Shown: one piece after another, positions 10,824 through 55,901 of the stretch
Layout of the letters: each line of letters begins with the position of its first letter
Numbering within the stretch: position 1 is the first letter of the stretch
Assembly: GCA_000146045.2 (NCBI GenBank)
Contig: BK006938.2
Location: 1,120,001-1,184,000 of the forward strand
Source: TPA_inf: Saccharomyces
Taxonomy: Eukaryota
Length of the DNA stretch: 64,000 nt
Reading direction: 5' to 3'
Notes under the pieces: model-generated
Database searches by the model: none
What the model was told of the DNA's origin: nothing
Seen by the model: only the letters and a program-made list of their open reading frames with translations
Made by a program: the position numbers and the translations under genes

Positions 10824-10880
10824 AACACTTTTATCCATTTTTTTTCGTATAAGCATATTTTACATCTTTATATATATTTA

Positions 10881-10894
10881 TTTTTTTTTTTTTT
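10881..10894 (+). promoter_or_regulatory. T14 tract in the 177-bp GPI8 3' end / IRC3 promoter interval.
   Basis: ATATATTTA, then T14, then ATTTTGG. This very short intergenic region must hold both the GPI8 terminator and the IRC3 promoter. Confidence 0.4.
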
Positions 10895-11000
10895 ATTTTG
10901 GTAGAATAGATTACATATACAACTTTTTCATAATGTCAAACTATAGAGTTTTATTTCACATAACGGAAGAAGCCTATTGGAGCCATGAGTATAATAAAAT

Positions 11001-13259: not shown

Positions 13260-15431
13260 TTAACCCTCATTTTCATTTGACTCTTCATTTTCATGAATGT
13301 ACTGTTGCAAAGATATTTGTCTAATTTGATTCAACAGGTCCTCATCTTGCATTCTTTCTGCCTGAAGGACAGCTAAATCCTTTTCATTAATAAAGGTTTT
13401 GATGTTTTCAACCACTTCGATTGATTCTTTTGACGTAGGCATTGGTGGTAATACGTCAAACTCATATACTTCATTATCAGACCAGATAAATGATGGAATT
13501 GCAGCCATTACAGAAGACTCCTCAGATAGTATGGCGAATCTTAATAAGTTAATTGGGATTCCCGCAATAAAGAAAGGTGATTGCAAGTTGTTAATGTTAT
13601 TGTGATCTTGCCCATCATTTGAATCGATTGTAACGTTTCCTCTATGGTAATCCTGTAAAATACTCGACATTTCATCATGCAAAAATGTTACCTCTTCGTT
13701 TCTATTCCAAAGTAACGGGAAGCGGGCCATATATGCCTTTAATTCCAAGTTTTCTGCCGAATGGCCATCAATGGATAAATCTTTAGTTAGCGCATGATCG
13801 CCCAAGAGTTTCTCCTTGAAAAGTTCTGACAGTTGTAAAGGATGATGCTTAAAGGCTTTTAGAAGCGCATTGCGGGCGGAACTCATCTCATTTATTCTTA
13901 GGAAGCTTAGTACTACCGCCAAGGAAAATCCTAAAGTATTCCACTGTTTATAACAGTTCATTAATGGAGAGTTGGATAATTCTATAATGTACTGATAGTC
14001 ATTATTCAATAGAAAATAGTGATCGAGGAAATACCTGCATCCTAAAGGATCTTCCAATGGGCTCAGTGACCAGAGAACTTTTGTCCATTCACTAGCAGTT
14101 CCTATAACACCTCTTTGAGCAAGAGATTGGATGTATCTAAATATTGCCAAGTAAAACTGTCTGTTGAAGAAGTATATATAAGGTAGTTGACAATTCAAGG
14201 AATCGAAAATAATATTTGCTTTCAAAGCTCTATCAAAGACAAAGAGTGCTCTTTGTAACAATCCATTAGTGTTTGATCTATCACCTTGCCTAATAAATAT
14301 CAAAGCAACTTGTAGCAGTCCAGGCACATGATACGGAAATTTAGAAGAAATCAAATTTATAAGGGCTTCATGATCAGGGTGAACAATAACACTTAAGTAG
14401 AAGTCCATCATTGATTTCTTGCTCAGGTCGGAATTTAAAGGTTCGAACTTATAAAAAGAAATGAATTTTTGCCACTGACTGACATCGTTTTGGATAACAT
14501 CCTTCCAATCTAACGGCCTTTCCCATAATTGCCAATCTAAAAGATCATCAGAACTTAAAAGTTTCATAGAGAGCTCACCTCTTTGAGTTGGGATCCAATC
14601 ATCTCTGATCTTGGTAAACTTCAAATGTTGCGGGTGCATTCCGGGGCCATTAGGTGCCAATCTATGATCTTTTCCGCCCCAGTTTCTAATTAATCTTTTC
14701 AGTCTCTGAATCTGTTTCAGCTGCTGAGGGGAGACAGGTGTGGATGTCATCGAATCAATATCTTCAAGAGACTCTGGAGATATATCGTCAAATAAAAGTT
14801 TGAATTCCGTATGGGGGTCCAATTTCTTGAAATCATTTTGAAAAAATTTGCAAGAATGCCTCAAACATGAAATGGGGAACTTTGTGAAGCCCGGATCACT
14901 TTCTAAGCTTAAAAATGACTTCCAAGGTTGGCTAGATGCTTCCTCTGGTTCAGATGCCGTGAAGAAACCTTCCTCATTAGTGTCATCATTTTTAGTCTTA
15001 CCGTACTTCAATATATCAGTTTTTTTGAACTGTTGGATAATCTTGTCGAATTCTTCATCATCATCATCATCATCGGAACCCTTGTCTTTTGCAGCCTCGG
15101 CGGTATGGTTTTTTTGCTTCCTTTTTGCCTTTTTATTCTTTTTCCTTCTAGAAGACTTGGATGCTAGTGTAATTCTTTTAGGTTGACCATTACTTTGAGT
15201 ATCACGCTCCCCAGCAGCAGCAGCTTCTTCATCCTGCTCAGACATTTGTCCTTCATCAGTGCTATTATCTGAATCACGTACGTTATTCATCATAGAGAAG
15301 ATGTTCTCCCGTTTCTGAATATTACCGGCAGTACTTTTACCACTCGTCATTTTATTCGCATTTGAATTCGATAGCAGCGACTCTAGCAGAGCATTATCAT
15401 CTTGTAATCTCCTTAATGCTCTAGAGCTCAT
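13260..15431 (-). CDS. RQC1: Rqc1, a component of the ribosome quality control complex (Tcf25 family). Length 723 aa.
   Basis: The track ORF starts at TTG 15467. The first ATG is at 15431 (MSSRALRRLQDD...), giving 723 aa. Basic and acidic low-complexity N-terminus, then a TCF25-like body. Confidence 0.8.
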   Translation of the reverse strand: MSSRALRRLQDDNALLESLLSNSNANKMTSGKSTAGNIQKRENIFSMMNNVRDSDNSTDEGQMSEQDEEAAAAGERDTQSNGQPKRITLASKSSRRKKNKKAKRKQKNHTAEAAKDKGSDDDDDDEEFDKIIQQFKKTDILKYGKTKNDDTNEEGFFTASEPEEASSQPWKSFLSLESDPGFTKFPISCLRHSCKFFQNDFKKLDPHTEFKLLFDDISPESLEDIDSMTSTPVSPQQLKQIQRLKRLIRNWGGKDHRLAPNGPGMHPQHLKFTKIRDDWIPTQRGELSMKLLSSDDLLDWQLWERPLDWKDVIQNDVSQWQKFISFYKFEPLNSDLSKKSMMDFYLSVIVHPDHEALINLISSKFPYHVPGLLQVALIFIRQGDRSNTNGLLQRALFVFDRALKANIIFDSLNCQLPYIYFFNRQFYLAIFRYIQSLAQRGVIGTASEWTKVLWSLSPLEDPLGCRYFLDHYFLLNNDYQYIIELSNSPLMNCYKQWNTLGFSLAVVLSFLRINEMSSARNALLKAFKHHPLQLSELFKEKLLGDHALTKDLSIDGHSAENLELKAYMARFPLLWNRNEEVTFLHDEMSSILQDYHRGNVTIDSNDGQDHNNINNLQSPFFIAGIPINLLRFAILSEESSVMAAIPSFIWSDNEVYEFDVLPPMPTSKESIEVVENIKTFINEKDLAVLQAERMQDEDLLNQIRQISLQQYIHENEESNENEG

Positions 15432-15619
15432 GTTCGAGTACTTTACAAATATATTTAGATGATTCAACGACCTGTATGTTAACCTTCAACTGGTGGACTG
15501 TATGTACTACCTATGGACATTTTTCACTATACGTTGATGCAGTAGTGAACATATTGCTCGCATAATGTTACCCGTTTATACCTCTATACGATTATTAAGG
15601 GAGGGTAATACTTTCTCAA

Positions 15620-15701
15620 TTTTTTTTTTTTCAGTTTTTAATATTATTTCCTTAAGATTTTTCGGTGGCGTTTCGCGACAACTTACGAGAAAAAAAAAAA
15701 A
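15620..15701. promoter_or_regulatory. Paired T12 (15620-15631) and A12 (15690-15701) tracts in the divergent RQC1-SWR1 promoter.
   Basis: Homopolymer runs 60 bp apart in a 500-bp divergent intergenic region. Confidence 0.45.
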
Positions 15702-15931
15702 GAGGAGACTTGAAGAAAGAGTGCAAAGGGATAGCGGGATTCTAAAGTGTTTACGTGCAAAAAGGATAGATTTTGAGCTTTAAACTAGATAAGACCCAAA
15801 GCATTCGATTACTGCATTTGAGAGGTATTCAACAATACCATTTTAACTCTTAGAAAATATTTCCTTAAGCTGAAAATTTATGAATTCTAACTGCTCTTTG
15901 CATTTTCCAAGTTATTGCATTACAAGAATAT

Positions 15932-18900
15932 ATGACCACATCTCGTAAATCGCATGCGAAAGACAAAAAGGCTGGTGGTGAACAGGATCTGGCGGATTTG
16001 AAGTTTAGGTATGATCTTCTGACGAATGAACTGTTCCATTTAAGAGAGTTTGTTTCATTGGTAGATTATGATCCAACCCATTTTAATGATTCTGAAAGTT
16101 TTCAGAAGTTTCTCAGGGAAACACACTTGTCGTTAGAGGAGAGAGGAGAAAAATTCACTGATGACGTAGCCAAGAAAGGCACGAATGGTGATCTTACTCG
16201 CAGAAGGCGAAACCTCAGGACATCGACAGTTGTTAGTTCAGAAACGACTAATGAGAAAAAGGGTGATATAGAACTGAAGTTAGAAAGCATAGCACCATTA
16301 GTACGAAATAAATGTGAGGAGCTAAAATACAAACTAAGTGATCATTCAAATAGGAAATCTATAGTACCGCAAAAAAGACCAATACAACATTTGAAGAAGA
16401 GAGAAGCAGCGAAGTCCTTGAAGTTCAAAAGTGAAAGAAAGGAAAATCCACTGCCATTGCATGAACATATAGCTGAAGAGAGATATGATCACATCGCAAA
16501 AGTTGAAGAACCCTCTGAAGCCTTCACTATAAAGTGTCCTTCTGATGATAGCTCCTTTGAAAATACTAGTGAACATTATAGTGATAATTTTTATTTCACC
16601 ACATCATCCGAAGAGGAAGATATAAAGAAAAAAAGAGGTAGAAAGAAAAAGAAGCCTAGAATAAAACTGGTAGTCCATCCTCCAAAGCAAACCATAACGA
16701 ACCCGTTGCATGTAGTCAAGCCGGGATACGAAAGCTTGCACGAATACATCGCTTCCTTTAAGTCATTAGAAGACGATTTAACGCTGGAAGAATATAATAA
16801 ATACATCGACGAACAAAGACGGCTTTTATCGAGACTCAAAAAAGGTATTGAAAATGGCGCATTGAAGTATGACAAAGAAACGGACTCACTACAACCTATA
16901 ACATCCAAGGAAATCAAGACTATCATAACATATAAACCAGACCCGATTTCATATTTCTATAAACAACAAGATCTGCAAATCCATACCGATCACTTAATTA
17001 ACCAAGGTATTCATATGAGTAAGCTGTTTAGAAGTTCAACAAAGGCAAGAATAGCAAGAGCCAAAAAGGTTTCTCAAATGATAGAACAACATTTTAAACA
17101 CGTAGCCGGAGCAGAAGAAAGAAAGGCAAAGGAGGAGGAGAGGCACAAAAAGTCGCTAGCCAGGTTCGCAGTTCAAGCTGTTAAAAAAAGATGGAATATG
17201 GCTGAGAAGGCTTATAGGATTTTGAGAAAAGATGAAGAAGAACAGTTAAAAAGGATTGAAGGTAAGCAACACCTTTCTAAAATGTTGGAGAAAAGTACAC
17301 AATTGTTGGAAGCTCAGCTAAACCAAGTAAATGACGATGGGAGAAGCAGTACCCCGTCTTCTGACTCAAACGATGTATTGAGTGAAAGTGACGATGATAT
17401 GGATGACGAATTATCAACATCTTCCGATGAAGACGAAGAGGTCGATGCTGATGTGGGGCTAGAAAATAGTCCAGCATCGACGGAAGCTACTCCAACAGAC
17501 GAATCATTAAATCTGATACAATTGAAAGAAAAATACGGGCATTTTAATGGTTCATCGACAGTATATGACTCAAGAAATAAAGATGAGAAGTTTCCGACAT
17601 TGGATAAACATGAAAGTTCAAGTAGTGAAAGTTCTGTAATGACTGGAGAGGAGTCCTCCATATATTCATCCTCTGAAAATGAAAGTCAAAACGAAAATGA
17701 TCGAGAATCGGACGACAAGACTCCATCTGTGGGTTTAAGTGCATTATTTGGTAAAGGTGAGGAATCGGATGGGGATTTAGACCTTGACGATAGTGAAGAT
17801 TTTACGGTTAATAGCTCATCTGTAGAAGGTGAAGAACTTGAAAAAGACCAAGTTGACAATTCAGCTGCTACATTTGAAAGAGCAGGTGATTTTGTTCACA
17901 CTCAAAATGAAAATAGGGACGATATAAAAGATGTCGAGGAAGATGCTGAAACAAAAGTACAAGAAGAACAGTTATCAGTGGTGGATGTACCTGTGCCATC
18001 TTTATTAAGAGGAAACTTAAGAACGTACCAGAAACAAGGTTTGAATTGGTTAGCCTCTCTTTATAACAATCACACAAATGGTATCCTGGCAGACGAGATG
18101 GGGTTAGGTAAAACTATTCAGACAATTTCTCTGCTAGCATATTTAGCTTGTGAAAAGGAAAACTGGGGGCCACATCTTATTGTTGTTCCTACATCAGTTC
18201 TGTTGAACTGGGAGATGGAATTCAAAAGGTTCGCGCCTGGGTTTAAGGTTTTAACATATTATGGTTCTCCCCAGCAACGTAAAGAAAAAAGGAAAGGTTG
18301 GAATAAGCCTGATGCTTTCCATGTTTGTATTGTTTCTTACCAACTTGTAGTTCAAGATCAACATTCCTTTAAGAGAAAGAGATGGCAATATATGGTGCTG
18401 GATGAAGCACACAATATCAAAAACTTCAGATCTACAAGATGGCAGGCTCTATTGAATTTCAACACACAAAGAAGGCTTCTGTTGACTGGTACACCTTTAC
18501 AGAATAACCTTGCTGAGCTGTGGTCATTATTATATTTCTTAATGCCCCAGACTGTTATTGACGGGAAAAAGGTTTCTGGATTTGCTGATCTTGATGCATT
18601 TCAACAATGGTTTGGACGCCCTGTCGATAAAATTATTGAAACGGGTCAGAATTTTGGACAGGACAAGGAAACGAAGAAGACAGTTGCCAAGTTGCATCAA
18701 GTTTTACGTCCATACCTCTTAAGAAGGTTAAAGGCCGATGTTGAGAAACAAATGCCAGCGAAGTATGAGCATATTGTTTATTGTAAGCTATCTAAAAGAC
18801 AAAGGTTCTTATATGATGATTTTATGTCTAGAGCTCAAACGAAAGCAACACTAGCCAGTGGAAATTTTATGTCAATTGTCAACTGTTTGATGCAATTGAG

Positions 18901-30941: not shown

Positions 30942-31038
30942 TGAAACACTTTGAAGTGAAAGTGTTTCTAGTTTTCTATATCATTACTATGGTGAAAATC
31001 TATATTTTCTTGATTAGGAATAAAATCATGGAAAGAAG

Positions 31039-31368
31039 TGTTGGAATAAAAATTCACTATCGTCTGTCAACTAATAGTTATAGTATCAATATACTATCAT
31101 ATACGGTGTTAGATTATGACATAAGTTATGAGAAGCTGTCATCGAAGTTAGGGGAAGCTGAAGTGCAAGGATTGATAATGTAATAGGATAATGAAACATA
31201 TAAAACGGAATGAGGAATAATCGTAATATTAGTGTATAGAAATATAGATTCCATTTTGGGATTCCTATATCCTCGAGGAGAATTTCTAGTATATTCTGTA
31301 TACCTAATATTATAGCCTTTATCGACAATGGAATCCCAACAATTATCTCAAAATTCACCCAATTCTCA
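31039..31368 (+). mobile_element. Solo delta LTR of Ty1/Ty2, about 330 bp, in plus orientation. It begins TGTTGGAATA and ends TCTCA.
   Basis: Near full-length match to the canonical delta, including ...TATTATCATATACGGTGTTAG..., GGATTGATAATGTAATAGGATAATG and the AATGGAATCCCAACAATTATCTCAAAATTCACC terminus. It lies about 100 bp upstream of the 5' end of tRNA-Ser, a typical Ty1 target. Confidence 0.85.
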
Positions 31369-31369
31369 A

Positions 31370-31440
31370 TTTGATAATTGTTGGGATTCCATTGTAAAGA
31401 AAATCGGTATTTCTACATTATAATATTACGATTATTTCTC
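31370..31440 (-). mobile_element. Inverted, internally deleted delta LTR fragment that abuts the 3' end of the full delta tail-to-tail.
   Basis: The reverse complement reads GAGAAATAATCGTAATATTATAATGTAGAAATACCGATTTTCTTTACAATGGAATCCCAACAATTATC, which matches the delta internal and terminal regions. Together with the adjacent LTR it forms a ~68-bp palindrome at 31327-31394. Confidence 0.65.
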
Positions 31441-31802
31441 CTTTTGTTTTTTATGGTTTTCATTACCCTATCACATTATCAATCTTTATATTTCAGATTC
31501 CATTAAATTTGATAACTTGGTTGATAGATGACAGTTAATTCTTTTTCCAATAGAAACAACGAAGACTTTTTTCTTACTTTTTGTTGATGTTTTTCAAGTT
31601 CTGTTTGACCCGTATTTTTCTACGTTAAAATCGTGATTACTTTACGAATCTTGTTTTCTTATTTTTTTTCGATCTATTTAATGAAATGTGGACAATGGCC
31701 CCTAACAAAAAGATGGCAAGGATTGAAATAATCCGTTTATACAATTTATATCCAATTATAGAAATAAAACACATTTGAAGAATGGCTTGGTGGAAAAGTT
31801 TA

Positions 31803-33626
31803 TTACATTCTTTCTACGGGAGTTAAACCTAACAAGCGCATACCGTTGTATAAAACTTGTCTTGCAGCACCATATAGAGCCAGACGGGCAGTTGCTAATT
31901 CTTCAGTTTGACCAGCAACCCATAAGACGTCATAACAAGAAGAAACCTGGTGAGTCAATTTGAATAAATATGTGACCACGGTTGTTGGCTCGTGGGTTTT
32001 GATTGCATTTCTCAAAACATCGGGGTATTGGCCTAGCAGTCTAATCAACAGTTTTGCGGCAGGTTCTTTTAATAACGAAAAATCGGCATTTATCCATTTT
32101 TCTTGGGTGATACCAGAAGCATTTCTTTCAACTGATCTTAACCTTGAGTGAGCATATTGAAGGTATGGACCAGTGTCACCTTCGAATGAAAGCATTCTTT
32201 CCCATTTAAACTCGTAGTTGTTGATACGCTTACCTTGCATATCTTGAATCATGACGGCAGAGATACCAACTAAATCGGCAACTTCTTCTGGATGCTCAAT
32301 TTGCGCGTATTTGTTCTCATTCTTTTTCATAACTTCGTGCATTTTTTCCTTAGTTTCCTCCAAGATATTATCTAAGAAGACAACAGTACCTTTTCTTGTT
32401 GACATACCTTGGACCATACCAAAGTTGACATGCTGTAGATCTTTAGCCCACTCAAAGCCCATCTGCTTCAAAATTTCGAAGAATTGGGCAGCGTGCAAAT
32501 CTTGTTGAGAAGCGATAACGTAAATCATCTTGTCAAAATGATACTTTTCATAACGGTCCATAGCTGCACCAACGTCTCTAGTTAGATATAACGTAGTACC
32601 GTCCGATTTTTGAACAATAGCCTTTCCTAACTTTTTGTTAAATTTTGTCAAATCGATCAAAACTGCACCCTTATCCTCATGTGTTAAGCCCTTTTCCTTG
32701 AACAGGTCGATAGCTTTGAGCATGGATTCTTTAGAAACTTGAGATTCACCAGAGTAAACATCATATTTGATGTTCAAACGTGCATATGTGTCAATATATT
32801 TTTCAATAGAAAATTCACGGAATCTCTTCCAAATTTTTAAAGCTTCCTCGTCACCATCTTCCATTCTCTTGAAATATTCACGAGCTTTTCCATTGGTGGA
32901 TTGTTCTAATGGAATACTGTCACCTTCTTCCTCAATATCCTTGTTGATACGAACGTAAACATCGAACAGGTGGTGAATTGGATCCTTAACTAAAGCCTCT
33001 TCATTACCGTATCTTTCAAAACCAACAGCTAAAAGACCAAATTGTTTACCCCAGTCACCCAGGTAGTTCATTCTGATAACCTCCCAACCTAATTTTTCAT
33101 AAAGGTTGGCCAAAAAGCCACCAATAATAGTGGATCTTAAATGACCAGCATGAAATGGCTTGGCAATGTTGGGAGAGGAGAATTCAATAATAACTTTCTT
33201 GTTTTCAACCAATTTGCAAGAACCATAATCCTCCTTTCTGGTTAAGATATCTGGGATGACAAGTTTTGCTAAAAATTGAGGGTTGAAGAAAAACTGGATG
33301 AACGGGCCATTCGCTTCAACTTTCTCCAAGAAATCTCCACATGGAAATTTTTCAGCCCATTGGACTGCCAAATCCTTTGGATTGGCACCTTTGATTCTCA
33401 ATCTTGGGATAGGAATCAACAAATCGCCTCTCTCCATAGTATTTGTCCATTCTAATGCTGGAAAAATAAGAGACGAGTCTACGCCGGAAATCTTGCTTAA
33501 TTCTTGTGAAATGTAATTTCTCATCAAATCCACGATATTTACATCAGGATGAGAATCCTTGGCAACCGCAGGTTCCGCGATAGATAGTTTCTTTAGTTGA
33601 GAAATCATATTTGCTGTGCTAGCCAT
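31803..33626 (-). CDS. YDR341C: Cytoplasmic arginyl-tRNA synthetase (class I). Length 607 aa.
   Basis: The ATG at 33626 (MASTANMISQ...) gives 607 aa. The track ORF has a 19-aa upstream extension. HIGH-type motif PNIAKPFHAGHLRSTIIG. An ArgRS DALR anticodon-binding C-terminus ends ...ARLALYGAARQVLYNGMRLLGLTPVERM. Confidence 0.9.
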   Translation of the reverse strand: MASTANMISQLKKLSIAEPAVAKDSHPDVNIVDLMRNYISQELSKISGVDSSLIFPALEWTNTMERGDLLIPIPRLRIKGANPKDLAVQWAEKFPCGDFLEKVEANGPFIQFFFNPQFLAKLVIPDILTRKEDYGSCKLVENKKVIIEFSSPNIAKPFHAGHLRSTIIGGFLANLYEKLGWEVIRMNYLGDWGKQFGLLAVGFERYGNEEALVKDPIHHLFDVYVRINKDIEEEGDSIPLEQSTNGKAREYFKRMEDGDEEALKIWKRFREFSIEKYIDTYARLNIKYDVYSGESQVSKESMLKAIDLFKEKGLTHEDKGAVLIDLTKFNKKLGKAIVQKSDGTTLYLTRDVGAAMDRYEKYHFDKMIYVIASQQDLHAAQFFEILKQMGFEWAKDLQHVNFGMVQGMSTRKGTVVFLDNILEETKEKMHEVMKKNENKYAQIEHPEEVADLVGISAVMIQDMQGKRINNYEFKWERMLSFEGDTGPYLQYAHSRLRSVERNASGITQEKWINADFSLLKEPAAKLLIRLLGQYPDVLRNAIKTHEPTTVVTYLFKLTHQVSSCYDVLWVAGQTEELATARLALYGAARQVLYNGMRLLGLTPVERM

Positions 33627-34130
33627 TCTGTAGAAAAACGAGCTATTGCTTTTTCTTTGATTAACAGAATTTACAACACTCAAGAATTTATTTCGTAACC
33701 TTATAATATCCTCTCCATAGATGCATTGTGAAAATTGAAGCTAAAAATTTTTTTCGCTTCGCATCATGAAAGTAATTTTTCTTCTTTTAAGTGACGGGCG
33801 ATGAGTAAGAAAGAAATAACTGACTCATTAGACACTTTTTGAAGCGGGATACAGAAAAAGAAGATATTTCCCATTTCAAAAAGGCTCTACTATATCCTTA
33901 CCATTTACCAAACTAACCAAAATTTGTAGACGTGGGTCTGCAGGCAAAATTGGAATATTTGTGAATAACAGTGCGGTCGGTAAACAACTGACTTCTTCCC
34001 ACTTTGCATTTCTCTTTAAAGTTTCTTTGTCTCCGTCCCACTCAACTTTCTGAGAACAAATGATCAAAAACTTGAAAATTAAACTGTATTATTTTGTATA
34101 TATTAAAAACGTATTTACTTTTCAAGATAT

Positions 34131-36027
34131 CATTAAAAATATAAAATTAGAATTAGAGTACATTTCAAATGCACAAATTAGAGCGTGATCATGAATTAAT
34201 AAAAGTGTTCGCAAATTATTTGGTGCTGAACATTCTCTTGTACAATGGCTTGTCATCGTGAGTCATTTCTTCAGCGTCGTAGTTGGCACCTCTTCTGGAT
34301 GGTGGAACCCATGAGGCAGACTTCCATGGTAGAACACCTTCTTCCCACATGGTGTTGACTTCTTCCAAAGTCAAACCCTTAGTTTCTGGAACAACTAACA
34401 AAACATAGAAGAACATGAAGACCAAACAGCCCATGAAAACGTAACCGTAGTAGAAGTTAATAGCACCAGTAATAAATGGAGTGAAGAAACCAATCAAGAA
34501 ACCCCACAACCAATTAGCAGCTGTAGCAATAGACATAGCCTTAGACTTGACTCTCAATGGGAAAGTTTCAGAAACAACGACATAAGGAATTGGAGCCCAT
34601 GTAGTAGCAAAACAGAAAATATAGAAACAGGCAAAGACAATCATACAGTTACCAGCACCCTTGGAAGATGGTTGGTCTTGACCATTTGGCCATAATCTGG
34701 TGACACCCACGGAAGCATAGACAACCATACAAGCAGTCATGGATGCAGCACCCCATAGCAAACAAGTACGACGACCATATCTCTCAACAACGTAAATACC
34801 AACAAAGGTGGAAGCAAAGTTAACAATACCCAAGACAATAGAGGTTTCGAAAGAGTCACTCAAACCAACAGCCTTGAAAATAGTAGTACCATAGTAGAAG
34901 AAATAGTTATCACCTGTCAATTGTTGTAGAGATTGAATCATAGCACCCATGATCAAACGCTGAAGGACCTTTGTCTTGCTACTAAACAATTCACCCCAGG
35001 ATGCATTACCAGCTAATTTCTCTGCCTCTACACCAGCCAAGACAGCTTCGACTTCAGCCAAAACAGATGGATCATCAACAGCAACCTTGTTAGAAACGGC
35101 AATAGAACGTTTGGCTTCTTCGATCTTACCGACTTCAGCCAAATAACGTGGAGACTCTGGAACAAATGTCATACCACCAATCATAAACAAAGCCCAGGCA
35201 AAACACAAACCTAATGGAACTCTCCATTGCACAGAGTTGGAGTAGTTCTTAGTACCGAAGTTGGTACAGTAACCCAAGAAAATACCGGCAGTAATCATCA
35301 ATTGGTAGCAAGAGACTAAAGTACCCCTTAAATGCTTTGGGGATACTTCAGAAATCAACATAGGAGATAAAACGGCAATACCACCAACACCCAAACCGGA
35401 AATAATTCTACCGATGAAATATTGGTACCATTTGTTGATAGATGCAATTTGAATAATAATACCGATGATGTAGATGACAACAACGACAATCAAACCCACC
35501 TTACGACCGTACATATCACCCAATTTGGAAAGAATAATACCACCAATGGCACAACCAATGTTGAAAATGGAGACAATCAAACCAGTTCTAACCTTAGACA
35601 AATAATTAGTACCATCTTTATGCTTCATACCAAATCTTCTGATGAAATCGGTTTGATTGATGAAACCAGAAATGGTACCAGTATCCCAACCGAAAACGAA
35701 ACCACCAAAGGCGATCATGATACACATAATAGAGACAGTGACATAGGCAGAAGCTGGTCTCTTTGGAATTTCAACGACAGGTTCGTGCTCTTCACCTTCA
35801 CCATAAGCTTTTATTTCATCTCTTTCAGCCTTGTTTGATGGTGTAGATAAAACCGAGTGGGAGGCTGAGTCAACAGCAGAGAGATGCTCCACAGGAGTTT
35901 GCTCTGCAATAGCAGCGTCTTGTGACATTTTTTGATTAAAATTAAAAAAACTTTTTGTTTTTGTGTTTATTCTTTGTTCTTAGAAAAGACAAGTTGAGCT
36001 TGTTTGTTCTTGATGTTTTATTATTTT
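34131..36027. repeat. Tandem duplication unit 1, about 1.9 kb. It holds the HXT7 CDS with about 85 bp of 3' flank and about 100 bp of 5' flank.
   Basis: Near-identical to 39523-41419 at a constant offset of 5,392 bp. Identity is lost on both sides at the stated boundaries. Confidence 0.85.
34216..35928 (-). CDS. HXT7: Hxt7, a high-affinity hexose transporter (MFS sugar porter). Length 570 aa.
   Basis: 570 aa with 12 TM helices and the sugar-porter signatures (GRR, PESPRYL, PETKG). It is the first (centromere-proximal) copy of two near-identical tandem genes. Its C-terminus is ...[18 protein letters not shown]. Confidence 0.9.
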
Positions 36028-36078
36028 ACAATAGCTGCAAATGAAGAATAGATTCGAACATTGTGAAGTATTGGCATA

Positions 36079-36086
36079 TATCGTCT
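36079..36086 (-). promoter_or_regulatory. Candidate TATA box (TATAAATA on the minus strand), about 150 bp upstream of the HXT7 ATG.
   Basis: Plus strand has CTCTATTTATAC. The element lies outside the duplicated unit. Confidence 0.35.
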
Positions 36087-39000
36087 CTATTTATACTTTT
36101 TTTTTTTCAGTTCTAGTATATTTTGTATTTTCCTCCTTTTCATTCTTTCAGTTGCCAATAAGTTACAGGGGATCTCGAAAGATGGTGGGGATTTTTCCTT
36201 GAAAGACGACTTTTTGCCATCTAATTTTTCCTTGTTGCCTCTGAAAATTATCCAGCAGAAGCAAATGTAAAAGATGAACCTCAGAAGAACACGCAGGGGC
36301 CCGAAATTGTTCCTACGAGAAGTAGTGGGTCATAAAAAGTTTATTCCCTGGAAAAAAAATTTTGCGTTGCCTTTCTGGAGAATTTTTTCGAATTAGCGTG
36401 CTGCCACTGCATGCATTTCTGAGAAGTGTGGGCATTCTTCCACCAGTTGTTCCTCCTAAAAAAAAAAAAGATTTCCTACCCCGCACAAATTCCTGCATAC
36501 CCCTCATTTCCACGGGGTAAAAAAAAAACATCCCGTAGCAGCCTCTGACGGAGCCGTATGGAACAATCCTGGATAAATATGGCGGAAAAACGGCTCTGGC
36601 TGCGGCTTTGTTTAAGGCAGAAACTAGATGAGATGTTTGTTGTTACGGAAAAAAAAATTTGTTGCGCTTTCTGTAGTGGGATTTGTCCTCATAACTTCTC
36701 CATGAAGGGGCCATTAAAATCTAGCCCTCTAGTAAAGCGTTATGGGAGCACTCTTGCGGCGTTCAACGGTGCTGCTTTTTCACTTTTACAGTATGATATG
36801 TCTTTCACATTGGGTTTTAGCTATAATTAGATAAAAATATTTTAAGTTGCTTTTGAAGTGTTTAGTAGGGCGTGTTTAGCAGGGCATGCTTAACAACCCC
36901 AAATGATCTTAGCGATGAGAGTACTATTTTCTAGGGTTGTTTTGTGCAGCCTGTTAATGTAGACATCAAGAAATTAAATGCGATCTTAATTCATTCGGAA
37001 TTTCTTTTCACCGTGTGAATGAAATTTTTCGAGATGCTAAGTATAATAAAAATAAAAAAATAAAATCGCTTTTCTTCTAGAGAATTTTTCCGTGAGAAAG
37101 TAAAAACACATAATACTAGCTTAATAAACTTTTCTTTCCACCACCCATAGGATACGCTAACAATTTTTGCTGTCAACTGCTTGCCATTTTGTTTTCTTCC
37201 GACTACTATCACTTAGGGCTATTGGCAGTATATGCGTAATTTTATCAATTACCATACTTGTCAAACATAGATCAGGAAAAATATTAACGTTCCTGTCAAT
37301 CTAAGACTTGAAGATTACAGGACTTTTTTTTTTCTTACTGTATTTTTCCGTAGAGTGCACCATTCGGCAGATGGATCGCGGGGAAATTGAGAGTTTATGC
37401 AAAAAAATCCGAAGGTGGAATTAAATGGGTCCCGCTTTGGAAAGCCCCGGATTTAATCCCCCATTAAGGCAAATTACTCCTCATCCTAGGTGGAGAAAAG
37501 AACCGGAAAAAAATGCAGTACCTTTTTTGTTCCCATTTCTTTTCCAAGTAAACAGGCGGAGAATCAAGCTGCTGCAGTTAGTTCTCAGAGTTCACTTAAC
37601 GTTCTCCTGTAATAAACATAAGGAACAACCATCACCCCACACTTTTATCTCTTCCTCACTAACATTGTGTTAGCTTGCATGTTCTTTGAGACTAATGACC
37701 GATTGTTTGATCTCTTCTTCCGATTATTGCTGGTCCGATCCCTTGAGCATCGAAAACCAAACGACTGTTTAAGATCTGTAATTGATTAAGACCCATTGGC
37801 GATTACTCACTCATCGGCAAAAAAAAATGGTCTGAACATGCGTTGAAAATTTTGCTCCCATGAGATTTTTTGTCTCATGTAGTAATTATTTTATTTCTTG
37901 AGCAATCTGAGCTTCAACAAGACAGAAAACGAATATGGCAACTGTTATTTCGTTATATAGTGTTGCTGGTGACCGAACACAAAAATGATCTTAGAATTGT
38001 AACTCAGGGAGCATACGAACAAAAGATTATTAGCATTTCGTACTTTCTAAAAGTTGAAGAAGTTGGCATTTGTTGATTTTATCATATCCTTAATAAAAAG
38101 TTGACGTCAGCATACAATTTGAAAATAGCAATATCGAATGCCTATTCCTCCTTTCGTTGTTTGAGTTTACCTAATATATCGATGCATTTTTGCAAAAGTG
38201 TGGTATTGAGCACGCGGTACTAGAAGGAAAAATCTCTTCTTTTTACTACGTGTCCTGCATTTCTATCATGGTGAAGATAATCATTATTTTATGTCAAAAA
38301 TTACTAGTTAGCTGTCAGAATTTTTTGTTTAAACATTGTTGAATTCCTGTCGCAGGTTAAAGAAATCGAAAAATAGCCAATGAAGTAGACAGAATCATTT
38401 GACCAGTTAGGTAAATTACTGTGTCAAATAATTCAACAACGCGTTTCTACGTGGTGGGCAGAAGTCCCTGGAATACTTTAGTGATGGTACACTTTTCGAC
38501 ATTAGAATTGTCTCTGAATTGTCACCCCGCTAATAAGTTATTTGTATGGACGCCAATAAAACCATACAAACGCGGCTTTCTGGTACTGCGTTTAATCTTG
38601 CATGAACTTTTCCGTCCATTGGGGCGAATATTCACTGTGCGATGTATACTACCTTTTTAGCTACTGAAGCCACTCTTAAAGCATGATTTTTTTCCTTCCT
38701 GCCATCTAAAGGTTACTTACGGCAACCTTTCCATAAATTGTTGCTGAAATAACATATAATAGTACCAAATGGGCCTATCAATAAGTTTACAGCCTACAAG
38801 ATTTTCTTCCACTAAAATATATTCGAATAGGACTTTGGCCAAAAACTGTTCATTAAGGGGCAGACTGTTCATGTTTTCTCGCAAATTACCTTTTTAACAA
38901 GGTGAAATTATTTTTTTTGGGGAATGCTAACTGTTTATCATCTGCCAGGAAAGAAAACTTAGATCCTCTTTACCAATCGCCGCCAGTAGTACATCATTTC

Positions 39001-39522
39001 TTATTAAATAAAAACATTTTCATATCATTAACCCTTTTTCAAACATATATGGGATGTAGTTTGCCAAGGATGATCATAAAGGCCTAATATGATCCCCATT
39101 TTCTTTTTATTACCAAAAATTCAGGTTTATTGACAAGCCTTCTCTACTCTGTCGCAATGCCAGTTTAACATTGAGGAGTTTAGTAGCTTCATTGTAATGA
39201 GGTGACTCTATTTAATTTCAGGTAGAAAAGCGCAGTACCGAGGTGAGCCCTGCATATGTACACTGATTGTGAAAAGCTCCGGCTCATAATTAATTTTTTT
39301 GATGAATTATAGAGTACTTTGTTTATAATAGAAGACTTTTTTTTTCCTCCTAAGGTAGCTTATGCGAGAAAGAGCGCCTACTTCGCTTCTAGCGCTACAA
39401 AACAATAACTTTGAAGGGTAAAGCTGTTAACTTTTCTTCAAAGCTTAGAAAAGAAAAAAAATTAATAAAAAATTATACTTCTATTGGCAACATCTTGCCA
39501 TACAATATAAATCGTAAGGGTT

Positions 39523-41419
39523 CATTAAAAATATAAAATCAGAATTAGAGTGCATTTCAAATGCACAAATTAGAGCGTGATCATGAATTAATAAAAATGT
39601 TCGCAAATTATTTGGTGCTGAACATTCTCTTGTACAATGGCTTATCATCGTGAGCCATTTCTTCAGCGTCGTAGTTGGCACCTCTTCTAGATGGTGGAAC
39701 CCATGAGGCAGACTTCCATGGTAGAACACCTTCTTCCCACATGGTGTTGACTTCTTCCAAAGTCAAACCCTTAGTTTCTGGAACAACTAACAAAACATAG
39801 AAGAACATGAAGACCAAACAGCCCATGAAAACGTAACCGTAGTAGAAGTTAATAGCACCAGTAATAAATGGAGTGAAGAAACCAATCAAGAAACCCCACA
39901 ACCAATTAGCAGCTGTAGCAATAGACATAGCCTTAGACTTGACTCTCAATGGGAAAGTTTCAGAAACAACGACATAAGGAATTGGAGCCCATGTAGTAGC
40001 AAAACAGAAAATATAGAAACAGGCAAAGACAATCATACAGTTACCAGCACCCTTGGAAGATGGTTGGTCTTGACCATTTGGCCATAATCTGGTGACACCC
40101 ACGGAAGCATAGACAACCATACAAGCAGTCATGGATGCAGCACCCCATAGCAAACAAGTACGACGACCATATCTCTCAACAACGTAAATACCAACAAAGG
40201 TGGAAGCAAAGTTAACAATACCCAAGACAATAGAGGTTTCGAAAGAGTCACTCAAACCAACAGCCTTGAAAATAGTAGTACCATAGTAGAAGAAATAGTT
40301 ATCACCTGTCAATTGTTGTAGAGATTGAATCATAGCACCCATGATCAAACGCTGAAGGACCTTTGTCTTGCTACTAAACAATTCACCCCAGGATGCATTA
40401 CCAGCTAATTTCTCTGCCTCTACACCAGCCAAGACAGCTTCGACTTCAGCCAAAACAGATGGATCATCAACAGCAACCTTGTTAGAAACGGCAATAGAAC
40501 GTTTGGCTTCTTCGATCTTACCGACTTCAGCCAAATAACGTGGAGACTCTGGAACAAATGTCATACCACCAATCATAAACAAAGCCCAGGCAAAACACAA
40601 ACCTAATGGAACTCTCCATTGCACAGAGTTGGAGTAGTTCTTAGTACCGAAGTTGGTACAGTAACCCAAGAAAATACCGGCAGTAATCATCAATTGGTAG
40701 CAAGAGACTAAAGTACCCCTTAAATGCTTTGGGGATACTTCAGAAATCAACATAGGAGATAAAACGGCAATACCACCAACACCCAAACCGGAAATAATTC
40801 TACCGATGAAATATTGGTACCATTTGTTGATAGATGCAATTTGAATAATAATACCGATGATGTAGATGACAACAACGACAATCAAACCCACCTTACGACC
40901 GTACATATCACCCAATTTGGAAAGAATAATACCACCAATGGCACAACCAATGTTGAAAATGGAGACAATCAAACCAGTTCTAACCTTAGACAAATAATTA
41001 GTACCATCTTTATGCTTCATACCAAATCTTCTGATGAAATCGGTTTGATTGATGAAACCAGAAATGGTACCAGTATCCCAACCGAAAACGAAACCACCAA
41101 AGGCGATCATGATACACATAATAGAGACAGTGACATAGGCAGAAGCTGGTCTCTTTGGAATTTCAACGACAGGTTCGTGCTCTTCACCTTCACCATAAGC
41201 TTTTATTTCATCTCTTTCAGCCTTGTTTGATGGTGTAGATAAAACCGAGTGGGAGGCTGAGTCAACAGCAGAGAGATGCTCCACAGGAGTTTGCTCTGCA
41301 ATAGCAGCGTCTTGTGACATTTTTTGATTAAAATTAAAAAAACTTTTTGTTTTTGTGTTTATTCTTTGTTCTTAGAAAAGACAAGTTGAGCTTGTTTGTT
41401 CTTGTTTTTTTATTATTAA
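39523..41419. repeat. Tandem duplication unit 2 (HXT6 copy).
   Basis: See unit 1. The 3'-flank identity starts at CATTAAAAATATAAAAT and the 5'-flank identity ends at ...GAGCTTGTTTGTTCTTG. Confidence 0.85.
39608..41320 (-). CDS. HXT6: Hxt6, a high-affinity hexose transporter. Length 570 aa.
   Basis: Second tandem copy. Its protein is identical to the upstream copy except for at least residue 556 (A versus T, ...EEMAHDD...), with a few silent changes near the 3' end. Confidence 0.9.
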
Positions 41420-41479
41420 AACAGAAAAATTGGAAAAAAGAAGAAGATAGTTACAAACCATATGTCTTTTCTCGAGCTC

Positions 41480-41487
41480 TTTTTATA
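41480..41487 (-). promoter_or_regulatory. Candidate TATA box (TATAAAAA on the minus strand), about 165 bp upstream of the HXT6 ATG.
   Basis: Plus strand has CTTTTTATAT. It lies outside the duplicated unit, so HXT6 and HXT7 use different promoters. Confidence 0.3.
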
Positions 41488-42956
41488 TGTTTCTGTGCTT
41501 TCTATATTGTATACCCATTTGCTCTCCATTGTCTGCAAGCCAAAATCTGCATACAGATCCGAGACATCTCTTGGATTTTTTTCAATGAAGGCACGGAGGG
41601 CATCTGAATAATCTCAATGAGTAAGAAACGAAATTTTTTAAGGAACATTTTCAATTTGCCTACGGACTATTCTCTGCAAAGTTCCAATAATTTCTCCTTT
41701 TTTTCCAGCGTTTAAAGGAAAAAAACTGGTTTTCGATGCCGGGGCCCCACAATGTACCTGCACTTTTTGTGGGGTAAACGTGGATAAAACGAATCTCCGT
41801 TGCCTAAAAAACATTTTTTTTCGTACGGTCCCCTCTGCGTTCAGGAAAAAAAGAGATCGGGTGGTGAGGCTAGGTAGCGTAGCCCCTTGGAGAAGCATAT
41901 GAAACATTTGTCTTGGCGCCGCACACAGGAACTGCGCACTTCTTTTTGTCCTAGGTTGCTTATCACACCATATGGTGCACCCGTGCTCGTTGTCACTGCC
42001 TTTTTTTAACAATTCTTCCTTTGTTCCTCTGAAAGCACGGGCCGGCGCACTCCAATTACCCCTACATTAATTTCCAAGTAGTAGCAGGGGGATGAACATG
42101 TGAACATGTTGCAACAACTGCGGTGTCTTCTTAGGCTTGTGTTCGGAATTTCTTCCTCCTGTTTCGGTGTGTGTTGCTTATTTTTTCCTTGCCCCTTTGC
42201 GGCATCACAGCAGCCGTTGTTCCGTATTCCGGCTGATAAGCATGGAAAGATTTTCCAACAATACTCATGAAAAAATGTGTTGGTGTCTGAGTAAGCTAAA
42301 TTTTCCCAAATTTGATGCCATTCAACCCGAAAACTTAAAATGTAAAAGGGGTTGAGATAGTGCAGCTGTGTGGCAAAAGTCAAAAAAAATCTGTTCCTTT
42401 CAAGGAAATGAAAAAAGGAAGGAAAAAATGTCCAGGACAGAAAGGCCATCCCCTTAGTAAAGAAACCTGCTTAGAGATTCTTGAGGCTCGAAAATGGTTG
42501 GTGGTTGGACTTCTTTTGAGTTTTCCGTCCGGATTTCAAACGAAATCCATCATCACGTTCCTAGCAACAAGAGGATTATTGGACGATTGTCGGGAGTAAA
42601 GATTACTCAGTTGGTTTTCTAACTCTACTGCGCACTTCTTCGTGGGTATAACAAATTGCACACACATACATTCTTATTATTTGATACTGCTTACGATAAC
42701 CGGAGACTTCTTTTTTTTCCTGTTCGGCTCTCGCCGATGGTATGAAGTTAAATGGTAGAAAAATTGTTTGTTTTGTTTACAAACTGGATCAAGAAATGTT
42801 AAAATTCTGTTTGATATCATGTACCAATGTCTTTTATTAACTGTATCAGAGAATTATATATATAAAGTCATAAATCTTGTGTATTATTTATCATTATTGA
42901 CTAGCACATCGAATCTTAAAATACACTATTATTCAGCACTACGGTTTAGCGTGAAA

Positions 42957-44660
42957 TTATTTCTTGCCGAACATTTTCTTGTAGAATGGCTGGTCATCAT
43001 GCATCAATGCATCAGCATCGTAGTTAGCACCTCTTTGAGATGTTGGAACCCATGAAGCAGACTTCCATGGTAGAACACCTTCAGCGTACATATCATTGAC
43101 TTCTTCCAAAGTCAAACCCTTAGTTTCTGGCACAAAGAAGAAAACGTAGAAGTAGGCGAAAACCATACAGCCCATGAAAACGTAACCGTAGTAGAAGTTA
43201 ATAGCACCAGTAATAAATGGAGTGAAGAAACCAATCAAGAAACCCCACAACCAATTAGCAGCTGTAGCAATAGACATAGCCTTAGACTTGACTCTCAATG
43301 GGAAAGTTTCAGAAATAACAACATAAGCAATTGGAGCCCAAGTGGTAGCAAAACAGAAAATATAGAAACAGGCAAAGACAATCATACAGTTACCAGCACC
43401 CTTGGATGAACCATTACCTTCACCATTTGGCCATAGTCTGGTGACACCAACAGAAGCGTAAACTACATAACAGCAGACCATACCAATGGCACCATATAAC
43501 AAACAGTTACGACGTCCAAAACGATCGACAGTGTACAAAGAACAACAAGTAGAGAAGAAGTTGACGACACCGAAAACAATAGAAGTTTCGAAAGAATCAC
43601 TCATACCAACAGCGTTAAAAACGGTAGTACCATAGTAGAAGAAATAGTTATCACCAGTCAATTGTTGTAGAGATTGGATCATGATACCCATCATAGTACG
43701 CTTAAACATGGCCGGCTTACCAGTGAACAACTCACCCCATGATGCTGAACCAGCAGCTCTAGCTTCTTCAACACTAGCTTCAATAACTTCCAACTCTTGT
43801 TGAATGAATGGATGGTCTGGGGCAACCTTGTTAACTTTGGAAAGAGATGCTCTTGCTTCGTCAATTTGACCAGCTTCAACCAAATAACGTGGGGATTCTG
43901 GAACGAAAGTCATACCACCGATCATAAACAAAGCCCAGGCAAAACACAAACCTAATGGAACTCTCCATTGCACAGAGTTGGAGTAGTTCTTAGTACCGAA
44001 GTTGGTACAGTAACCCAAGAAAATACCCAAGGTAATCATCAGTTGGTAACAGGAGACTAAAGTACCTCTCATTTCCTTAGGAGCGACTTCAGAAATCAAC
44101 ATAGGAGATAAAACGGCAATACCACCAACACCCAAACCGGAAATAATTCTACCGATGAAATATTGGTACCATTTGTTGATGGATGCAATTTGAATAATAA
44201 TACCGATGATGTAGATAACAACAACGACAATCAAACCCATTTTACGACCGTACATATCACCCAATTTAGCCAAAATAATACCACCAATGGCACAACCAAT
44301 GTTGAAAATGGAGACAATTAAACCAGTTCTAACCTTAGACAAATAATAACTACCATCTTTATGCTTCATACCGAATCTTCTCAAGAAATCAGTTTGGGCG
44401 ACGAAACCAGAAATGGTACCAGTATCCCAACCGAAAACGAAACCACCGAAGGCAACCATAACACAACAGATAGACACAGTGACATATGCACCTTTACCTG
44501 TATTTGGGTTGGTAAGTACTTGGTCGGCCTCAGCTTGGAAATCATCTTGAACACCTTTTTCTTCAGGCATGTTCATTACCTGAGAGCTATTCGAAGGCAG
44601 GTCAGCATTCGAATTCTCACTTGACTTTTGTGGAGATATTAAATCTGGAGTTGAATTCAT
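42957..44660 (-). CDS. HXT3: Hxt3, a low-affinity hexose transporter. Length 567 aa.
   Basis: 567 aa ([36 protein letters not shown]...). Sugar-porter TM core with long segments identical to HXT6/7 at the nucleotide level. Confidence 0.9.
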
Positions 44661-44764
44661 GATTGTTTAACTCAGATGTAAATTTTGTTTGTGATTCTAT
44701 TATTTATGAAAAGCTATTAAGTAAAATTATGGAATATTCATGCTGAAGATAAAACAGCGCCTGT

Positions 44765-44772
44765 ATTTATAT
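44765..44772 (-). promoter_or_regulatory. Candidate TATA box (TATAAATA on the minus strand), about 105 bp upstream of the HXT3 ATG.
   Basis: Plus strand has CTGTATTTATATGC. Confidence 0.3.
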
Positions 44773-44972
44773 GCAACCCCCAAGCGAAAAAAAACTTTGA
44801 CTTTTCTTCTCTTCTGGAGAAATTCTCTGGGGATATAGTCCCCAGATTTTTTGAGTGGGCCCCCAATGTCCCACATCGTTATTGAGTTGTTTCTTTCTCC
44901 AGAAGGTCGTTGTACAGTCATTATAATGGCGGTCAGTATAATGACCTCCGGAAATACCAACATCGGGGAAAG

Positions 44973-55828: not shown

Positions 55829-55901
55829 GCTTCAGTAGCTCAGTAGGAAGAGCGTCAGTCTCATAATCTGAAGGTCGAGAGTTCGAACCTCCCCTGGAGC
55901 A
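55829..55901 (+). tRNA. tM(CAU)D: Elongator tRNA-Met, anticodon CAU, 73 nt, no intron.
   Basis: GCTTCAGTAGCTCAGTAGGAAGAGCGTCAGTCTCATAATCTGAAGGTCGAGAGTTCGAACCTCCCCTGGAGCA. The anticodon loop is CUCAUAA. The A-box is TAGCTCAGTAGG and the B-box is GGTTCGAACC. This is not the initiator type. Confidence 0.9.

Follow-up and report, generated by a model that had tools for sequence, protein, structure and literature searches.

The HXT7/HXT6 Tandem Repeat of Saccharomyces cerevisiae S288C: Repeat Edges, Position-Specific Promoters and Concerted Evolution

Two neighbouring genes of nearly identical sequence can be a young duplicate, or an old duplicate whose copies are kept alike by exchange. HXT7 and HXT6 in the HXT cluster of S. 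cerevisiae S288C raise this question. It is very likely that they are an old tandem duplicate kept alike by recurrent exchange, and that their repeats are a substrate for unequal recombination.

Genes and repeat units

The window (the whole stretch of DNA analysed, 64,000 nt) contains the HXT3-HXT6-HXT7 hexose-transporter cluster of S. cerevisiae S288C, and nothing contradicts this identification. HXT7 (34216-35928, minus strand) and HXT6 (39608-41320, minus strand) each encode 570 aa followed by a stop codon. The exact-sequence look-up indicated that both proteins are residue-for-residue those of S288C, Hxt7p (NP_010629.3) and Hxt6p (NP_010630.1). The Pfam domain Sugar_tr (PF00083) is present at full length in both proteins (profile positions 1-452 of 452, residues 68-528), with a score of 603 bits against the cut-off of 22.3 (E = 4e-181 for HXT7). 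Both proteins belong to the sugar porter family of the major facilitator superfamily. High-affinity glucose transport is their probable function, assigned through their identity, residue by residue, with Hxt6p and Hxt7p, which are characterised proteins.

HXT3 (42957-44660, minus strand, 567 aa) is a third tandem paralogue and an exact match to S288C HXT3. It shows about 85% nucleotide identity to HXT7 from about codon 60 to the stop codon. HXT3, HXT6 and HXT7 are three Sugar_tr ORFs on the same strand, arranged head-to-tail. HXT3 is absent from the preliminary description of this DNA. The gene order Pal1, Sod_Fe_C, Svf1, HXT3, HXT6, HXT7, Arg-tRNA synthetase and Fcf1 is the same in all assemblies compared, and the pair lies between HXT3 and the arginyl-tRNA synthetase gene in each of the S. 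cerevisiae assemblies among them. The HXT7 (YDR342C)/HXT6 (YDR343C) locus on chromosome IV of S288C is identical to the one described here, with no difference between them, and what the window holds appears to be the reference sequence.

The self-comparison of the region with blastn indicated a single ungapped direct repeat with a period of 5,392 nt. Repeat unit 1 (the HXT7 unit, 34130-36025, minus strand) comprises the CDS together with a 97-nt leader on its 5' side and 86 nt of 3' UTR. It matches repeat unit 2 (the HXT6 unit, 39522-41417, minus strand) over 1,896 nt with 8 mismatches and no gaps (99.578% identity). A 1.9-kb repeat of 99.6% identity cannot be a chance match. The preliminary description had reported two nearly identical 570-aa genes with the same period, and an abrupt end of identity about 85 bp 3' of the stop codon and about 100 bp 5' of the ATG. 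The blastn match bears out the former, and the repeat homology was measured to stop 86 nt and 97 nt away, respectively. The intervals given there, 34131-36027 and 39523-41419, are equal at 1,887 of 1,897 positions (99.47%). Their right edge lies 2 nt too far and their left edge is 1 nt short; otherwise the placement is right, and the pairwise comparison gave over 99% identity with no extension well beyond these boundaries.

Past the repeat edges, the in-register identity is at background (0.2-0.4 per 50 nt). No homology was found between the two upstream flanks or between the two downstream flanks by blastn with word sizes of 11 and 7. Over the 75-100 bases next to the edges, the identity in register is not significant against other offsets as the null (p about 0.05-0.2).

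The mismatches are clustered at the edges of the repeat. Three are in the 3' UTR (34148, 34160 and 34205), three in the CDS (34252, 34263 and 34297) and two in the 5' leader (36013 and 36015). All 8 fall in the outer 181 nt, no more than 168 nt from the 3' edge or 13 nt from the 5' edge. The central 1,715 nt of the repeat has no mismatch. The chance probability of such clustering is about 7e-9, and none of 200,000 permutations gave an equally long clean run.

The codon comparison showed that the three linked coding differences constitute a 3' block (codons 559, 556 and 544; 34252-34297 in HXT7 and 39644-39689 in HXT6, minus strand). The block is TCC-ACT-GAC in the HXT7 copy and TCT-GCT-GAT in the HXT6 copy. 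The sole residue difference between Hxt7p and Hxt6p is T556A, with ACT (T) in HXT7 and GCT (A) in HXT6. The differences at codon 544 (TCC/TCT) and codon 559 (GAC/GAT) are silent. This is exactly the earlier observation that coding differences, T/A at residue 556 plus silent changes, are present only near the 3' end.

Upstream regions and TATA boxes

A unique spacer of 3,496 bp (36026-39521, minus strand) contains the upstream/promoter region of HXT7 and the sequence downstream of HXT6. It has no homology to the upstream region of HXT6; in S. paradoxus (72.7% over 3,647 nt) and S. uvarum, the HXT7 spacer is its sole match. The spacer contains no ORF over 90 aa, no tRNA gene, no inverted repeats and no exact ARS consensus; the sole tRNA gene of the window is at 55829-55901. 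The unique upstream region of HXT6 (41418-42956, minus strand) extends for 1,539 bp up to the stop codon of HXT3. Its only alignments are to the corresponding regions upstream of HXT6 in S. paradoxus (76.7% over 1,633 nt) and S. uvarum. The ORF list includes a 147-aa ORF inside this region, at 42006-42449.

The proposal that each copy has a separate regulatory region is supported by these flanks, which show no detectable homology to each other, and by the promoters, which match their positional counterparts only. Judged from their sequences, promoters that were never duplicated cannot be told apart from promoters that were duplicated long ago and have since diverged. Both copies have in common the 97 nt that immediately precede the ATG.

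The candidate TATA box of HXT6, TATAAAAA, is at 41480-41487 (minus strand), and that of HXT7, TATAAATA, is at 36088-36095 (minus strand), corresponding to -167 to -160 from the ATG. Both were read from the sequence. TATAAATA is the only match to TATA[AT]A[AT][AG] within 1.2 kb upstream of HXT7, and a weaker TATATG is seen near HXT7 at 36080-36075. The TATA position proposed previously for HXT6, 41480, is correct, but the one for HXT7, 36079, is about 9 nt off the best box. The boxes of HXT7 and HXT6 are in exact register at the offset of 5,392. This register is not claimed as proof of an originally longer duplication, as the flank identity is not significant. Rgt1, Mig1 and STRE-type motifs occur in similar numbers in the two promoters (3/3, 3/3 and 4/7, respectively), and these motifs are too degenerate to inform on differential regulation.

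Age of the pair and exchange between the copies

The syntenic loci of other S. cerevisiae strains, S. paradoxus and S. uvarum were compared. The layout and the repeat edges are the same in every genome examined. The 5' edge precedes the ATG by 82-97 nt, the 3' edge follows the stop codon by 86-89 nt, and the period is 5,326-5,427 nt. The shared edges and the position-specific promoter alignments in all genomes indicate that the duplication predates the split of these species. The exchanged segment has kept its edges since before the split of S. cerevisiae and S. uvarum.

The identity between the paralogues HXT6 and HXT7 varies among genomes. Four S. cerevisiae strains show 99.9, 99.7, 99.6 and 99.0%, strains ADQ/CLN 96.2%, S. 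paradoxus 93.8% and S. uvarum 92.7%. In the neighbour-joining tree, each HXT6 groups with the HXT7 of its own genome rather than with its positional counterparts, and this holds for all five genomes. In the distance matrix, HXT6 and HXT7 of S. paradoxus are 94.5% identical to each other and 90-92% identical to either S288C copy. Paralogues within a genome are closer than positional orthologues between genomes, indicating concerted evolution.

The copies are mosaics. Copy-specific blocks were observed at CDS nt 15-120, 940-970 and 1340-1425, and in the 3' block (codons 544, 556 and 559). Ancient blocks of this kind that survive in S. paradoxus and S. uvarum have been erased in S288C. At CDS nt 1340-1425, the HXT6 of S. 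paradoxus shares 89.5% identity with that of S. uvarum, compared with only 74.4% for S. uvarum HXT7; here both copies of S288C are of the HXT6 type and both copies of strain ADQ are of the HXT7 type. At CDS nt 15-120, S288C HXT6 is 100% identical to ADQ HXT7, and ADQ HXT6 matches S. paradoxus HXT6 (95.3%). The HXT6 version of the 3' block is found on both copies in three other S. cerevisiae assemblies, and the HXT7 version on both copies in S. paradoxus. Homogenisation has run in opposite directions in different strains of S. cerevisiae.

The diverged S. cerevisiae alleles of ADQ/CLN carry ancient copy-specific blocks. Introgression from S. paradoxus was considered for these alleles and rejected, as they are only about 90% identical overall to the S. 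paradoxus copies. Further HXT genes, HXT3 for example, may be the source of some patches that distinguish the copies in other genomes; such patches would then not be ancestral.

The clustering by genome, the positional promoters and the surviving copy-specific blocks therefore argue for an old duplicate maintained by exchange. Homogenisation of the copies by exchange had been proposed in the preliminary description, and is borne out by this clustering together with the erasure of ancient blocks in S288C. The shared 1.9-kb segment would be held near-identical by gene conversion, by cycles of unequal crossing-over (expansion and then contraction), or by both. Exchange would be unable to pass the repeat edges because there is no homology there, so that differences would persist only beside the edges.

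The homogenising pathway is inferred; gene conversion and expansion-contraction through unequal crossing-over are not distinguishable on sequence alone. It is possible, although doubtful, that homogenisation proceeded mainly by crossing-over cycles, in which an array of at least three copies returns to two, and not by non-reciprocal gene conversion. Expansions, deletions and circles are frequent and documented at the HXT6/7 locus, and a single crossover could confine the S288C differences to one end. The strains with the HXT6-type 3' block on both copies also fit the contraction of a three-copy array. However, the copies of S. paradoxus, S. uvarum and ADQ are fine mosaics in which short identical and diverged stretches alternate, and in S288C the N-terminal block is of the HXT7 type while the internal blocks are of the HXT6 type. 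Several exchanges are needed for this pattern, and short conversion tracts are the simpler explanation.

The TATA boxes lie about 65 nt upstream of the 5' edge of the repeat, and the edges roughly bracket the likely transcription unit. If exchange were coupled to transcription, or used cDNA made from transcripts as its template, homogenisation would be confined to the transcribed region and the promoters would evolve freely. Such coupling or templating is improbable. A more modest reading would be that the near-identity in S288C is a recent two-directional mosaic overwrite of an ancient pair, with HXT3 also exchanging with HXT6.

The very high identity and the sharp edges are also consistent with recent copying of the 1.9-kb segment in the S. 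cerevisiae lineage, where 99.6% identity would reflect too little time for divergence. One review terms HXT6 and HXT7 "recent gene duplications" (PMC3497230). Such a young origin is very unlikely and is already largely refuted: the tandem pair, its edges and its position-specific promoters recur in S. paradoxus and S. uvarum, the copy-specific blocks are common to several species, and the between-copy identity ranges from 92.7% to 99.9% among genomes. The comparative data argue against the label used in that review. A full-text literature search for HXT6 and HXT7 with "concerted evolution" returned reviews only, and PMC3497230 contains no analysis of the pair. The old and concertedly evolving pair is a small addition, set against the recent-duplication view of at least one review, and it matters for dating duplicates and for reading HXT6/HXT7 polymorphism.

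An assembly artefact, in which one gene was duplicated or mis-joined, can practically be dismissed: short-read assemblies break here and many database contigs with the gene are only 1.9-2.0 kb, but the copies differ at 8 positions, sit in unique non-homologous flanks, and show the same two-copy layout in at least 8 independent chromosome-scale assemblies, two other species included.

Gao and Innan reportedly described in 2004 old yeast paralogue pairs that look young through gene conversion. HXT6/HXT7 resemble such pairs in that the paralogues cluster by species though the duplication predates speciation.

Amplification, circles and related arrays

Amplification, circle formation and the fitness effect are taken from the literature, and the present analysis concerns the anatomy, the gene identity, the conserved architecture and the concerted evolution of the pair. 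Two 1,896-nt repeats (99.58%) flank the 3,496-nt spacer, an arrangement that constitutes a substrate for amplification and circle formation. The spacer and one repeat together make the amplifiable unit of 5,392 bp. The two direct repeats would allow unequal sister-chromatid or intrachromatid recombination, which would gain or lose 5,392-bp units (one chimeric ORF and the HXT7 promoter spacer) or excise circles. Extra units would raise high-affinity glucose uptake and would be selected under glucose limitation.

Unequal exchange and the amplification of HXT6/7 under glucose limitation, both named in the preliminary description, are indeed published (PMC2586090, PMC3084205, PMC7430651). The same papers are the source for amplified or excised units whose junctions fall inside the repeats. 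Unequal mitotic recombination and amplification of HXT6/7 were described by Gresham 2008 (PMC2586090), where Brown 1998 is cited for them. Kvitek & Sherlock 2011 (PMC3084205) reported arrays of up to about 10 ORFs, in which N ORFs are accompanied by N-1 HXT7 promoters. Prada-Luengo 2020 (PMC7430651) reported an HXT6/7 circle and the chromosomal amplification HXT6 HXT6/7 HXT7. Copy-number variation of HXT6/7 is also seen in wine strains (PMC5427499). The HXT6/HXT7 region is collapsed by short-read assemblies.

HXT6/7 chimera arrays and circles arise repeatedly under glucose limitation, and the locus is a textbook case in which direct repeats allow fast and reversible adaptation via copy-number change. 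The HXT7/HXT6 repeat is confirmed here, but it is already known and thoroughly studied, and its description is correct but ordinary. The recovery of a known locus from raw sequence indicates that the first-stage reading is reliable, and it brings no new biology.

The literature groups the CUP1 and ENA arrays with HXT6/HXT7 (PMC7430651; PMC12157680). The CUP1 and ENA1/ENA2/ENA5 arrays are, like HXT6/HXT7, near-identical tandem direct repeats that change in copy number by homologous recombination and form circles. CUP1 repeats the whole unit including the promoter, whereas HXT6 and HXT7 share only the 1.9-kb segment of leader, CDS and 3' UTR. Their promoters are unrelated, and amplification therefore multiplies the HXT7 promoter only.

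Exact matches to the ARS consensus are not enriched in the window (5 against 3.3 expected). The consensus search identified one candidate origin element inside the repeat, the exact 11-bp match TTTTATATTTT at 34136-34146 (minus strand), which is duplicated at 39528-39538. The HXT6/7 circle is stated to carry a replication origin (PMC7430651), and the match at 34136-34146 sits 6 nt inside the 3' repeat edge.

Structure of the tandem repeat

Two transporter ORFs of 570 codons each are located on the reverse strand, at 34216..35928 and 39608..41320. Both proteins show a full-length match to Sugar_tr (PF00083; E = 4e-181). By exact-sequence match, the first is S288C Hxt7p (NP_010629.3), the second is S288C Hxt6p (NP_010630.1), and the next ORF on the same strand (42957..44660) encodes S288C Hxt3p. 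Thus, the window carries the reference HXT3-HXT6-HXT7 cluster. HXT3 shares ~85% nucleotide identity with HXT7, starting near codon 60 and continuing through the stop codon.

Self-comparison of 31,000-44,800 gave one ungapped match between 34130-36025 and 39522-41417, with a length of 1,896 nt, 8 mismatches and 0 gaps (99.578% identity). The period of 5,392 nt is the sum of this repeat and a unique spacer of 3,496 nt, which is the HXT7 upstream region. The preliminary description placed the copies at 34131-36027 and 39523-41419; these edges are 1-2 nt off, but the near-identity was borne out by the pairwise comparison proposed there, with 1,887 of 1,897 positions matching (99.47%). The abrupt loss of identity, put at ~85 bp 3' and ~100 bp 5', was measured at 86 nt past the stop codon and 97 nt before the ATG. 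Outside these edges, in-register identity falls at once to a background of 0.2-0.4.

All eight mismatches are confined to the unit's outer 181 nt; its central 1,715 nt contain no difference. This clustering has a chance probability of ~7e-9, and an equally long clean run did not occur in any of 200,000 permutations. As described before, the coding differences are confined to codon 556 (ACT, Thr, in HXT7; GCT, Ala, in HXT6) and the silent codons 544 (TCC/TCT) and 559 (GAC/GAT). Of the remaining five mismatches, three are in the 3' UTR (34148, 34160 and 34205) and two mark the very end of the 5' side (36013 and 36015). Each transporter gene also contains an antisense ORF of 138 codons with a TTG start (35422-35838 and 40814-41230, forward strand), which is duplicated because it lies inside the repeat. 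Nothing in the ORF list of the window supports it as a gene.

Promoters and age of the pair

Neither the two upstream flanks nor the two downstream flanks matched each other by blastn at word size 7, consistent with the earlier proposal that each copy has its own regulatory region. In the first 75-100 flanking bases, in-register identity was not significant (p ~0.05-0.2 against other offsets). The best TATA boxes are TATAAATA for HXT7 (36095-36088, reverse strand) and TATAAAAA for HXT6 (41487-41480, reverse strand); the position first proposed for HXT6 (41480) was right, while that for HXT7 (36079) was ~9 nt off. With an offset of 5,392, the two boxes are in exact register. Both lie ~65 nt beyond the end of homology, and no significant similarity of the copies was found between the boxes and the edge. 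This register hints that the duplication may have been longer at first, and proves nothing.

Syntenic loci were compared in S. cerevisiae BDN (L001), ADQ/CLN (L002/L003) and five further S. cerevisiae assemblies (L007-L011), in S. paradoxus (L005), and in S. uvarum (L006 and the metagenomic contig L004). In L009, a run of 2,719 N breaks the locus and one copy is readable. All complete assemblies share one layout: the 5' edge is 82-97 nt from the ATG, the 3' edge is 86-89 nt past the stop codon, and the period is 5,326-5,427 nt. Identity between the HXT6 and HXT7 repeats is 99.9% in L008, 99.7% in L011, 99.6% in S288C, 99.5% in L007, 99.0% in BDN, 96.2% in ADQ/CLN, 93.8% in S. paradoxus and 92.7% in S. 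uvarum.

The S288C HXT6 upstream region aligns solely with its HXT6 counterparts in S. paradoxus and S. uvarum, and the HXT7 spacer solely with the HXT7 spacers of these two species. Neither S288C region cross-matched the other type there. The spacer (36026-39521, 3.5 kb) contains no ORF longer than 90 aa. S. cerevisiae and S. paradoxus share just 73% identity across it, yet it aligns from end to end; with S. uvarum, the long alignment is restricted to the ~650 nt closest to HXT7 (roughly positions -760 to -150 relative to the ATG). Since the promoters align by position only, the tandem pair with its two distinct promoters is older than the split of S. cerevisiae, S. paradoxus and S. uvarum.

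The neighbour-joining tree of coding sequences joins HXT6 to HXT7 of its own genome in each of the five genomes. Such pairing, despite promoters orthologous by position, is the signature of concerted evolution and agrees with the initial guess of homogenisation. Old duplicates of young appearance are a general phenomenon familiar in yeast, so the age of this pair is a minor refinement; it is the sole departure from some of the literature. A review terms HXT6/HXT7 'recent gene duplications' (PMC3497230); against this, the comparative data show an old duplicate of young appearance. Full-text literature searches on gene conversion or concerted evolution of HXT6 and HXT7 gave no sign of a dedicated analysis of the pair, as judged mostly by title and abstract.

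In ADQ/CLN (positions 9903-11799 and 15329-17224 of the fetched locus), HXT6 and HXT7 are only 92% and 95% identical to S288C, and the flanks 95-99%. Diversity within S. cerevisiae at the locus, in this comparison, is far above that of the surrounding sequence. In 34 of 46 index blocks, the longest contig with this exact protein is below 2 kb (examples 1,936-2,019 bp; L012-L014). This size is close to the repeat length, which indicates that the repeat edges are where short-read assemblies break. The HXT7 copy is present without a gene call in three chromosome-scale assemblies (L002, L008 and L010).

Copy-specific blocks and sequence exchange

HXT6-HXT7 differences in other genomes are clustered and reveal what are probably ancient copy-specific blocks. 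At CDS nt 1340-1425, identity between S. paradoxus and S. uvarum is 89.5% for HXT6 with HXT6 and likewise 89.5% for HXT7 with HXT7, against only 74.4% for S. paradoxus HXT6 with S. uvarum HXT7. The HXT6 type is present in both copies of S288C and BDN, and the HXT7 type in both copies of ADQ. At CDS nt 15-120, where the two types differ by ~19%, ADQ HXT6 is 95.3% identical to S. paradoxus HXT6, ADQ HXT7 is 93.4% identical to S. paradoxus HXT7, and S288C HXT6 is 100% identical to ADQ HXT7. From these block types, the near-identity in S288C is best read as a derived mosaic overwrite in both directions. Of three linked 3' differences, the two versions are kept in S288C and L007, the HXT6 version is in both copies of L001, L008 and L011, and the HXT7 version is in both S. 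paradoxus copies.

The HXT6 type at nt 1340-1425 is 96.5%, 97.7% and 93.0% identical to HXT3 of the same genome in S288C, S. paradoxus and S. uvarum, respectively, and shares species-specific variants with it; for the HXT7 type, identity to HXT3 is only 75-79%. The pattern is suggestive of sequence exchange also between HXT3 and the adjacent HXT6.

The comparisons shown here indicate that exchange between HXT6 and HXT7 wipes out interior differences. Exchange would halt at the repeat edges, where homology ends, and differences would for this reason persist only near the edges. As the route of this exchange, short-tract gene conversion is favoured by the fine mosaics, and expansion and contraction through unequal crossing-over would be a real contributor in view of the well-documented copy-number changes.

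Amplification of the locus

The locus is the reference HXT6/HXT7 pair, and its reading as a substrate for unequal exchange and HXT6/7 amplification, given in the preliminary description, is already known and published (PMC2586090, PMC3084205, PMC7430651). Amplification by unequal mitotic recombination between the 99% identical genes recurs when glucose is limiting, and its selective advantage is reported as 1.094 (PMC2586090). In evolved clones, the ORFs number up to about 10 and the HXT7 promoters always one fewer (PMC3084205), as the anatomy of the S288C locus predicts. An HXT6/7 circle with a replication origin aboard forms repeatedly and precedes stable chromosomal amplification as HXT6 HXT6/7 HXT7 (PMC7430651). 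HXT6/HXT7 copy number also differs among wine strains (PMC5427499).

Each repeat contains an exact match to the 11-bp ARS consensus, TTTTATATTTT, 6 nt in from its 3' edge (34136-34146 and 39528-39538, reverse strand), and no exact match is present in the 3.5-kb spacer. The match at the edge may relate to the origin of the circle; across the window, such matches are no more frequent than expected by chance. The sole tRNA gene in the window, tRNA-Met (CAT) at 55829-55901 on the forward strand, is unconnected with the HXT repeat.
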